DNA of 7,936 nucleotides, taken from positions 1 through 7,936 of the IMG/VR virus record IMGVR_UViG_2695420871_000002. One strand, written 5' to 3'. Every line of letters begins with the position of its first letter. Position 1 is the first letter of the stretch. Shown here one piece after another: positions 6,506 through 7,936 of the stretch. The position numbers and the translations under genes are program-made. The DNA is from a virus. Its lineage: Duplodnaviria > Heunggongvirae > Uroviricota > Caudoviricetes. The notes beneath the pieces are model-generated. The model ran no database searches and was not told the DNA's origin. It saw only the letters and a program-made list of their open reading frames with translations.

Positions 6506-6553
6506 TCCTTAGATTTTCCTAAGGAAACTAGATCGTAGAGAAACCTAAGTCAA
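6506..6553 (-). promoter_or_regulatory. PR-like promoter for the dicC-like gene with overlapping operator repeats
   Basis: Minus-strand -35 TTGACT (plus 6548-6553), 17-nt spacer, weak -10 TAGTTT (plus 6525-6530). Inverted repeat TCCTTAG-N6-CTAAGGA at 6506-6525 and CCTAAG at 6544-6549 overlap the promoter. On the + strand, TAGAAT at 6561-6566 sits 8 nt before the dicA ATG with no SD, suggesting a leaderless PRM-like transcript as for lambda cI. Confidence 0.35.
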
Positions 6554-6574
6554 GAAAAATTAGAATTCCCTAAT

Positions 6575-6982
6575 ATGAAAAACGAAACCTTCGGTGCTCG
6601 CCTCTTACATAGGCGTAAAAAATTAAAACTGTCTCAGGCCGCATTAGGTAAGCTGGTCAAAGTGGCTCACGTAACAATTTCTCAATGGGAAAGAGATGAA
6701 ACACAGCCGGCGGGGAAAAGATTATTCGCACTGAGCCAAGCGCTTCAGTGCTCACCGACTTGGCTTCTTTTTGGGGATGAAGATAAACAACCAGGCGAAC
6801 CGATCCCGGATAATCAGCCAGCCATTCTGACAGAAGATCAAAAAGAGTTACTTCAACTGTTCGACGCACTGCCTGAGTCAGAGCAAAAGGCCCTGTTGTC
6901 AGAGATGCGTGCTCGAGTTGAAAATTTCAACAAACTTTTTGAAGAACTACTCAAAGCTCGCAAAAGAAGCGCAAACAAATAA
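6575..6982 (+). CDS. dicA: DicA-like XRE-family HTH repressor (cI analogue), 135 aa
   Basis: LKLSQAALGKLVKVAHVTISQWERDETQPAGKRLFALSQALQCSPTWLLFGDEDKQP...EMRARVENFNKLFEELLKARKR matches E. coli DicA as I recall it, with the same length. Divergent from the dicC-like gene. Confidence 0.85.
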   Translation: MKNETFGARLLHRRKKLKLSQAALGKLVKVAHVTISQWERDETQPAGKRLFALSQALQCSPTWLLFGDEDKQPGEPIPDNQPAILTEDQKELLQLFDALPESEQKALLSEMRARVENFNKLFEELLKARKRSANK

Positions 6983-7054
6983 TCCCCTTTTTTCTCCACA
7001 CCCTGTAATAAAAAGCACAAACTTTCAAACACTTGTGTTTTTTACATCAAAAAA

Positions 7055-7107
7055 CTTAGGTTTTTCTACACAAAAATCTTGACCGCCCACCTTAGGTTAT
7101 TCTAAAT
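7055..7107 (+). promoter_or_regulatory. PL-like promoter flanked by 15-bp direct repeats (putative DicA operators)
   Basis: ACTTAGGTTTTTCTA (7055-7069) and CCTTAGGTTATTCTA (7089-7103) flank -35 TTGACC (7079-7084); -10 candidates CTAAAT/TAAATT at 7102-7108. The CTTAGG core is shared with the dicC/dicA intergenic repeats. Confidence 0.35.
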
Positions 7108-7184
7108 TTCATTCATCAAGACACCGCACGGTGTTCTCAGCAAACAGTTCCGCTACCCCGGCGTTAAGGGGAAATGGGGTCAAC

Positions 7185-7340
7185 ATGAATACTATCGATC
7201 TTGGCAACAACGAATCTCTGGTGTACGGCGTGTTCCCCAACCAGGACGGCACATTCACCGCCATGACGTATACCAAAAGCAAAACGTTTAAAACCGAAGC
7301 TGGCGCACGTCGTTGGTTGGGAAGACATTCAGGTGAGTAA
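7185..7340 (+). CDS. ydfA: YdfA-like small protein (DUF1391-type), 51 aa
   Basis: Track ORF 7131..7340 trimmed to the internal ATG at 7185 (MNTIDLGNNESLVYGVFPNQDGTFTAMTYTKSKTFKTEAGARRWLGRHSGE). Resembles Qin YdfA as recalled, and sits downstream of dicA as in Qin. Confidence 0.6.
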   Translation: MNTIDLGNNESLVYGVFPNQDGTFTAMTYTKSKTFKTEAGARRWLGRHSGE

Positions 7341-7341
7341 A

Positions 7342-7545
7342 ATGAACGAGACAGAATTAAAACACGTTATCGCTCTACTCCTAGAAGATGCAAAACGCCT
7401 CCAGCAACTGGAGCCAAATGCAGGCACTGGGGCACGCATCTGGCTGGCTAAAGAAGCGCTGGAATCTGGCGATTATGATAGCGAAGAAGCCTTCTACAAA
7501 GCAGAAGGCCGTGCAGGATATTCACCGGGTCTTGGCGGGGTATAA
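7342..7545 (+). CDS. ydfB: YdfB-like small protein, 67 aa
   Basis: ATG at 7342 preceded by AGGTGAG (track ORF starts at GTG 7333). MNETELKHVIALLLEDAKRLQQLEP... follows the ydfA-like gene. Its 3' end overlaps the convergent 7522..7818 ORF by 24 nt, so the true stop is uncertain. Confidence 0.5.
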   Translation: MNETELKHVIALLLEDAKRLQQLEPNAGTGARIWLAKEALESGDYDSEEAFYKAEGRAGYSPGLGGV

Positions 7546-7818
7546 ATACCATGCGCATTGACTGAATTCGCAAACAAAAACAGACGCGCGATACCTGGAT
7601 AGTCGGTCTGCATAGTCAGATATCTGGCTGCGAATTTGATAAATATCACCGCCCTTTTCGGAAACATAAGTTCCGTCCGGGAGTTGATTATACGAACCAT
7701 CTCCATGGGGGATCGTTCTCCTGAATCCTAGTGAGAGCATATATTTATGAAGCCCTTCGTAATCCTCTGGCTCAGCATTATATAGTTCTACTCTGGCGAG
7801 ATACGTTGGCATATTCAT
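7522..7818 (-). CDS. Hypothetical protein, 98 aa, convergent to the PL-like operon
   Basis: ORF 7522..7818 with AAGGA just before the ATG (short spacing). Composition looks protein-like (MNMPTYLARVELYNAEPEDYEGLHKYMLSLGF...). No family recognised. Confidence 0.4.
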   Translation of the reverse strand: MNMPTYLARVELYNAEPEDYEGLHKYMLSLGFRRTIPHGDGSYNQLPDGTYVSEKGGDIYQIRSQISDYADRLSRYRASVFVCEFSQCAWYLYPAKTR

Positions 7819-7922
7819 TTCCTTACTGGTTGTGTGAGAACTTCAGTAAAGATACCACTGAGGTAGCCTGAGTTTAACGGACACTCCTTCCTGAAATAGA
7901 ATGGCATCAGAAGGAGCTAATA

Positions 7923-7936
7923 ATGAGCAGAAAAAC
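7923..7936 (+). CDS. 5' end of a gene truncated by the window edge (MSRK...)
   Basis: AAGGAG at 7910-7915 sits 7 nt before the ATG at 7923; only 4 codons are visible. Confidence 0.25.

Follow-up and report, generated by a model that had tools for sequence, protein, structure and literature searches.

The dicA/dicC/dicBp region of the Qin prophage in E. coli K-12 is the described system to which the locus reported here is most usefully compared. In one study, dicBp is described as a PL-like, DicA-repressed promoter, and operator-like sequences are reported between dicA and dicC as well as at dicBp itself (PMC10448788, citing Bejar et al. 1988). Deletion of dicA raised expression of a dicBp-lacZ fusion 22-fold and gave 100% 'on' colonies, and DicA is released by the antirepressor Rem, not by RecA (PMC10448788). 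In a second study, the switch operator Oc was shown genetically to bind DicA, and in an in vivo assay DicA alone bound Oc, the best of the switch operators, but not Om or Oa (Yun et al. 2012, PMC3441716). ChIP-seq with K-12 DicC yielded a palindromic TT(A/C/T)G...C(G/A/T)AA motif and binding at these promoters (bioRxiv 10.1101/2024.09.21.614188). The Reg-Seq study of 2020 lists the DicA site for dicB as low-evidence, its location being unknown in the database used (PMC7567609), so even the K-12 reference is a combination of sequence prediction and genetics. For the P22 C2 repressor, binding to 18-bp symmetric operators is known to occur through the outer bases, with the centre left uncontacted (PMC4267663).

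The whole stretch of DNA analysed here, which we call the window (7,936 nucleotides), carries the immunity module of a Qin/Rac-like lambdoid E. coli prophage, as its open reading frames, scans against Pfam and PHROG, and comparison to the nearest complete genome show. Its minus strand carries a YdaT-family gene and a 75-aa gene of the P22_Cro family (Table 1), the latter a Cro/CI family regulator in RefSeq and named dicC in the PPompW prophages. The dicA-like repressor consists of an N-terminal helix-turn-helix domain of the P22 C2 type and a short helical C-terminal part that aligns almost without change to that of K-12 DicA. P22 C2 is the closest relative with a solved structure, its N-terminal domain being matched by residues 2-69 (E=1e-21). 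A Pfam search of the 135-aa protein returned HTH_3 and related families only, with neither Peptidase_S24 nor any other peptidase domain found.

Downstream of the repressor gene, ydfA and a 67-aa gene follow on the plus strand. The RefSeq equivalent of the 67-aa gene is an incomplete gene lacking its C-terminus, an annotation that is probably wrong. Convergent with this operon is a 98-aa ORF (7522-7818, minus strand) that matches phrog_8894 over its full length (E=4e-38, function unknown) and is unannotated in the nearest RefSeq genome (L002 10263-10559). Neither dicF nor dicB lies within the window, which ends at 7936, and the nearest complete genome, lacking both further downstream as well, continues with IS elements and remnants; ydfB, ydfC and dicB are present in other copies of the window's immunity type. 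Elsewhere in the window, a 222-aa ORF beside the replication genes (5120-5788, minus strand) encodes an uninterrupted run of twelve glutamates from a GAA/GAG repeat, the opposite strand of which reads as poly-serine. A gene for a QueH-type epoxyqueuosine reductase (2551-3237, minus strand), which the annotation of the matching genome places near a hok-like toxin region, appears to be cargo within the prophage, unrelated to phage functions.

Table 1. Features of the immunity region in the window; operators, promoter elements and RNA structures are predictions.
Feature	Positions	Strand	Remarks
cro/dicC-like gene, 75 aa	6271..6498	(-)	Pfam P22_Cro, E=3e-13; divergent from repressor gene
Switch operator 1, CCTTAGATTTTCCTAAGG	6507..6524		Perfect 6+6+6 palindrome; adjoins cro-like gene; K-12 Oc position
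Switch operator 2, TCGTAGAGAAACCTAAGT	6533..6550		Inverted; one good and one degenerate half-site; Om position
Switch operator 3, AATTAGAATTCCCTAATA	6558..6575		Oa position; abuts repressor start codon
dicA-like immunity repressor, 135 aa, WP_000787424.1	6575..6982	(+)	62% identity to K-12 DicA
Terminator-like hairpin, 12-bp stem AAAAAGCACAA / TTGTGTTTTTT, 12-nt loop	7009..7044	(+)	dG -9.2 kcal/mol, z -3.8
Distal left operator, ACTTAGGTTTTTCTACAC	7054..7071		About -61 to -44 from predicted start site
-35 hexamer TTGACC, PL-like promoter, orthologue of K-12 dicBp	7079..7084	(+)	Promoter scan; K-12 alignment
Proximal left operator, CCTTAGGTTATTCTAAAT	7090..7107		About -25 to -8; spacer and first five -10 bases
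-10 hexamer TAAATT, 18-bp spacer	7103..7108	(+)	Promoter scan
Transcribed leader, two small hairpins	7112..7184	(+)	Common to prophages and phages of other immunity types; also L001 1936-2008, L030 2511-2583
ydfA (DUF1391), 51 aa, operon gene 1	7185..7340	(+)	Pfam E=3.5e-28; RefSeq annotation
Operon gene 2, 67 aa	7342..7545	(+)	ydfB-like N-terminus; phrog_30817 full-length, E=2.5e-49

An earlier note on this DNA had pointed to two 15-bp direct repeats, identical at 13 of 15 positions, that flank a TTGACC -35 element and share a CTTAGG core with the switch region. Both copies can be read off directly (CTTAGGTTTTTCTAC at 7055-7069 and CTTAGGTTATTCTAA at 7091-7105), and the hexamer does lie between them. 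Although the 13/15 identity holds, the repeats are more aptly viewed as a pair of 18-bp imperfect palindromes built on a TTAG-N6-CTAA core, and the second does more than flank the -35 hexamer, since it also takes in the spacer and the -10 up to its fifth base. The shared CTTAGG core is likewise present in the switch region, at 6518-6523 and 6544-6549, but on the opposite strand.

CTTAGG occurs four times in the window, twice downstream of the repressor gene and twice in the switch region, and by itself this number lacks significance (4 against 2.5 expected for the window). Longer patterns define a five-member family of 18-bp sites, each with TTAG at positions 3-6, CTAA at positions 13-16, a variable centre and a symmetry centre between bases 9 and 10. 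Searching the window for CTTAG-N6-CTAA with at most one mismatch gave 10 strand-hits against 1.3 expected, a number reached in 0 of 200 shuffles. These matches are the five sites and a single stray at 4621, and all except that one fall in the two intergenic regions on either side of the repressor gene. The exact TTAG-N6-CTAA core was found three times against 0.10 expected, and CTTAGGTTNTTCTA with up to two mismatches four times against 0.12 expected, neither number ever being reached in 200 shuffles. A repeat search placed four of the five sites in one direct-repeat family.

The downstream sites can also be recovered from the switch region. A weight matrix was trained on the three switch sites alone and then applied to the remainder of the 7.9-kb window, where its best matches were 7090-7107 (16.2 bits) and 7054-7071 (11.9 bits), with the next best position at 8.8. 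Nothing above background was detected by this matrix between or beside the two sites that could serve as a third operator at the promoter. The distal site scored lowest of the five sites and has one degenerate half (CTAC). Over 7054-7069 it is identical at 15 of 16 positions (94%) to the reverse complement of the middle switch site (6535-6550), and the match takes in that degenerate half-site. The likeness between these two sequences hints at a distinct class of weak site. K-12 presents a parallel, its own distal site resembling Om, with TGTTA...CATA in both.

The TTGACC/TAAATT pair matches the promoter consensus at 9 of 12 positions, a quality about as frequent as chance predicts here (3 found, 2.0 expected). 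Should TAAATT be the -10 element, the predicted start of transcription is near A7115. Across the immunity types examined, the first bases of the -10 are always the TAA in the right half-site of the proximal operator. The centres of the two left sites are 36 bp apart, or about 3.4 helical turns, and two dimers would therefore lie on different faces of the helix. The 18 bp between the sites hold the -35 hexamer and a hypervariable stretch and contain no operator match. This geometry differs from the adjacent, cooperative arrangement of lambda.

When the window is aligned to K-12 Qin, TTGACC and the leader down to ydfA coincide with the dicBp region and are conserved, the hexamer without a change. 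Gene order is also the same: a cro-like gene, a three-operator switch, a 135-aa repressor, the promoter and ydfA. Two operator-like sites surround the K-12 promoter at the same positions as here, their centres 35 bp apart compared to 36 in the window. The K-12 sequences at these aligned positions, TGTTAGCTATAGCATACA and TGTTAGTCATGGCTAATC, match K-12's own switch operator Oc, TTGTTAGTCATAACTAACAA, and not the sites of the window, for the operator flanks read TGTTAG...CTAACA there and CCTTAG...CTAAGG here. The first two helices of the repressor's helix-turn-helix differ as well, and the window is therefore another immunity variant. Differences extend to the operon past ydfA and to the terminator-like hairpin, which is absent in K-12. 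With its divergent genes and three palindromes, a short repressor of the DicA type, and a dicBp-like promoter that precedes ydfA and carries switch-type sites, the locus belongs to the Qin-type dicA/dicC/dicBp module, as a variant in both operators and repressor.

The intergenic region was found in 177 of 5,426 complete E. coli genomes (about 3%), at 80-99% identity, and most complete E. coli genomes contain some relative of the wider dicC-to-ydfB region. Nine E. coli copies chosen across the 80-99% identity range were aligned. In these, 17 of 18 positions of the distal site are invariant, as are both promoter hexamers, and in the proximal site variation is confined to the outermost base and a single central one. 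Variable positions make up 3 of 43 in the operators and hexamers as against 11 of 31 in the spacers (Fisher p=0.003). All five bases at 7085-7089 vary, along with several positions past the -10. The 7085-7089 hotspot reads differently in nearly every lineage (GCCCA, ACCAG, ATATG, ACAAT or ATAAT) within otherwise fixed sequence. The switch region is almost invariant in the E. coli copies, and switch operator 1 is unchanged in all nine.

Comparison across immunity types ties the downstream sites to the switch. A scan with a DicA alignment, covering one genome per species, provided 19 loci, which together with the window and K-12 represent 13 immunity types. A distinct operator word marks the switch of every type and recurs on both sides of the downstream -35; examples are TGTTAG..CTAACA, TTGAG..CTCAA, TGTTGAG..TTAACA and TAACTTTTGTTA. 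The best 16-mer match between switch and downstream region averaged 14.0 within a locus and 12.25 between different loci (13 types), and the observed mean was not attained once in 20,000 permutations of the pairing of switch and downstream regions (p < 5e-5). This 16-mer test was an unbiased all-against-all comparison, whereas the 18-mers used to compare layouts were picked by eye. On that footing, 12 immunity types share one layout, in which a distal site is followed by 5-8 bp, the -35, 3-7 bp and a proximal site ending in the -10, with the centres of the two eye-picked sites 34-37 bp apart. In several types the distal site is a good palindrome (L003, L007 and L018). Three of the DicA loci (L005, L012 and L014) come from metagenome-assembled genomes labelled Collinsella, Bacillota and Veillonella. 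The first is near-identical to K-12 Qin; the other two are of the mEp460 immunity type, with identical operators and the same leader and ydfA. All three most likely represent contigs of enterobacterial prophages that were mis-binned.

In module architecture the viable lambdoid phage mEp460 agrees with the window, having the distal/-35/proximal layout, the same leader and ydfA, but its operators are of another type, ATTGAGTTTTCTCAAT, and its repressor is not the same. In Shiga-toxin-producing E. coli, the PPompW prophages belong to the window's own immunity type (about 95% identity) and are annotated with dicA and dicC. Operator annotation is absent from the mEp460 and PPompW records. In phages such as mEp460 and HannyBb, similarity to the window begins only at about 7102, with the -10 and leader. 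Judged from these alignments, a mosaic boundary lies at the proximal operator and -10, and the immunity module is swapped as a unit that includes both left operators.

Two RNA elements frame the promoter. The terminator-like hairpin stands directly past the repressor gene with A and T runs on either side. Across the nine copies its stems are invariant and its loop is variable, and K-12 Qin shows a 36-nt alignment gap in its place. Such a hairpin would protect the left promoter against transcription continuing past the end of the repressor gene. The leader contains two small hairpins, GACACC-GCAC-GGTGTT and CCCC-GGCGTTAA-GGGG, with GTTCCGCTA just before the second. In Citrobacter and other loci the second stem carries compensatory changes (weak covariation) and its loop, GGCGnTAA, is kept, and other lineages have GTTCTGAC and a CCCG-GAAAGA-CGGG hairpin instead. 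The leader as a whole folds no more stably than shuffled sequences (z -0.36), and the first small hairpin weakly stands out (z -2.0). An Rfam scan of 6900-7936 gave zero matches at E<=1, and thus the leader belongs to no described RNA family. It could act as a signal for antitermination, of the nut/put kind, or for processing. Our literature search returned nothing on a leader signal or on antitermination of ydfA/dicB, and neither ydfA nor the 67-aa gene is annotated as an antiterminator in Pfam or PHROG.

The earlier note had gone on to propose that this is an analogue of OL/PL under the same repressor. As in P22 and lambda, the repressor gene sits between two promoters, and one type of operator is used at the switch and at the leftward promoter. 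The likeness to P22 C2 is closer still in that the repressors have homologous N-terminal DNA-binding domains, the window's sites are 18-bp and symmetric with conserved outer bases and a variable centre, and one operator overlaps the -10. In contrast to the three tandem operators of lambda and P22 OL, which are about 23-24 bp apart and cover both the -10 and the -35, the window has two, 36 bp apart, and its -35 sits between operators instead of inside one. The lambda and P22 repressors carry a C-terminal LexA-like (S24) domain for self-cleavage and oligomerisation, which the window's repressor does not have. PL of these phages is followed by a gene for an N-type antiterminator and by nutL, whereas no gene annotated as N-like follows the promoter here. 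Judged by its layout, the left promoter would work like OL/PL of lambda and P22 and is not a strict member of that family. The proposal is thus supported by the K-12 homology, the switch-trained matrix, the co-variation, the layout and the conservation, with the amendment that there are two sites, not three, and that they are palindromes.

The two sites match the switch operators non-randomly, occupy positions homologous to those at dicBp, co-vary with immunity type and are conserved. We consider it very probable that both repeats are repressor operators, with the specificity of the switch, at an early-left promoter that drives ydfA and the genes downstream. We propose a model where occupancy of the proximal site (-25 to -8) by a DicA-like repressor dimer would keep RNA polymerase off the spacer and -10. 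The weaker distal site (-61 to -44) lies immediately upstream of the -35, and a second dimer bound there would strengthen repression, either through protein-protein contact or by blocking upstream contacts of the polymerase. The Cro-like protein probably recognises the same sites. The inferred parts of this model are the assignment of proteins to sites, the order in which the sites are filled, the start of transcription and cooperativity, if there is any. It is tempting to speculate that the distal site, instead of cooperating with its neighbour in the manner of lambda, might pair with the three-site switch about 540 bp upstream through the short DicA-type C-terminal domain, looping out the repressor gene. 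We regard such a loop as doubtful; the one specific observation in its favour is the near-identity of the distal and middle switch sites. If true, looping would couple autoregulation to silencing of the left operon.

The distal site invites a more restrained reading, in which the proximal site is the sole working operator and the distal sequence is a weak, Om-like half-operator, either a relic or mainly a target of the Cro-like protein. Its degenerate CTAC half and its score, the lowest of the five, speak for this, as does its similarity to the middle switch site, whose K-12 counterpart was not bound by DicA alone in the in vivo assay (PMC3441716). Because of that similarity, and because Om went unbound in K-12, the distal site may bind repressor poorly by itself or may mainly serve the Cro-like protein. 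However, 17 of its 18 positions are invariant in nine diverged copies while the neighbouring spacers vary, and a site of the locus's own operator type holds the distal position in 12 immunity types, as a good palindrome in L003, L007 and L018. On balance it is unlikely that only the proximal site works, and two repressor operators are the reading we prefer.

Other explanations would deny the sites a regulatory role altogether. The region is AT-rich and the CTTAGG hexamer by itself is not over-represented (4 against 2.5 expected), as would suit a functionless chance similarity in an intergenic region. Yet the longer patterns were not reached in 200 shuffles, a matrix built from the switch alone singled out both sites, the operator words co-vary with the switch (p < 5e-5), and the sites are conserved relative to their spacers. 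Shuffles, matrix, co-variation and conservation together effectively refute chance, to which we assign a negligible probability. A junction or linker for recombination between mosaic modules could likewise leave repeats without regulatory function, and the module boundary does fall right at the proximal site, with other immunity types sharing sequence only from about 7102. Linkers should be common to different module types, however, whereas the sites here are particular to each type and vary together with the repressor; the shared sequence begins past the sites, and the sites match the switch operators inside the module. We therefore reject a recombination linker as very improbable, on the statistics and the type-specific co-variation.

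In a broader context, the two operators add a concrete map of predicted repressor positions at the early-left promoter of prophages that form a widespread family in E. coli. Their importance is modest: no new kind of mechanism emerges from them, and the locus is an ordinary variant of the known dicA/dicB control region. The set of loci across immunity types amounts to natural operator/repressor pairs on one scaffold, which may be of use in working out the specificity rules of P22 C2-like repressors and as a source of orthogonal parts.
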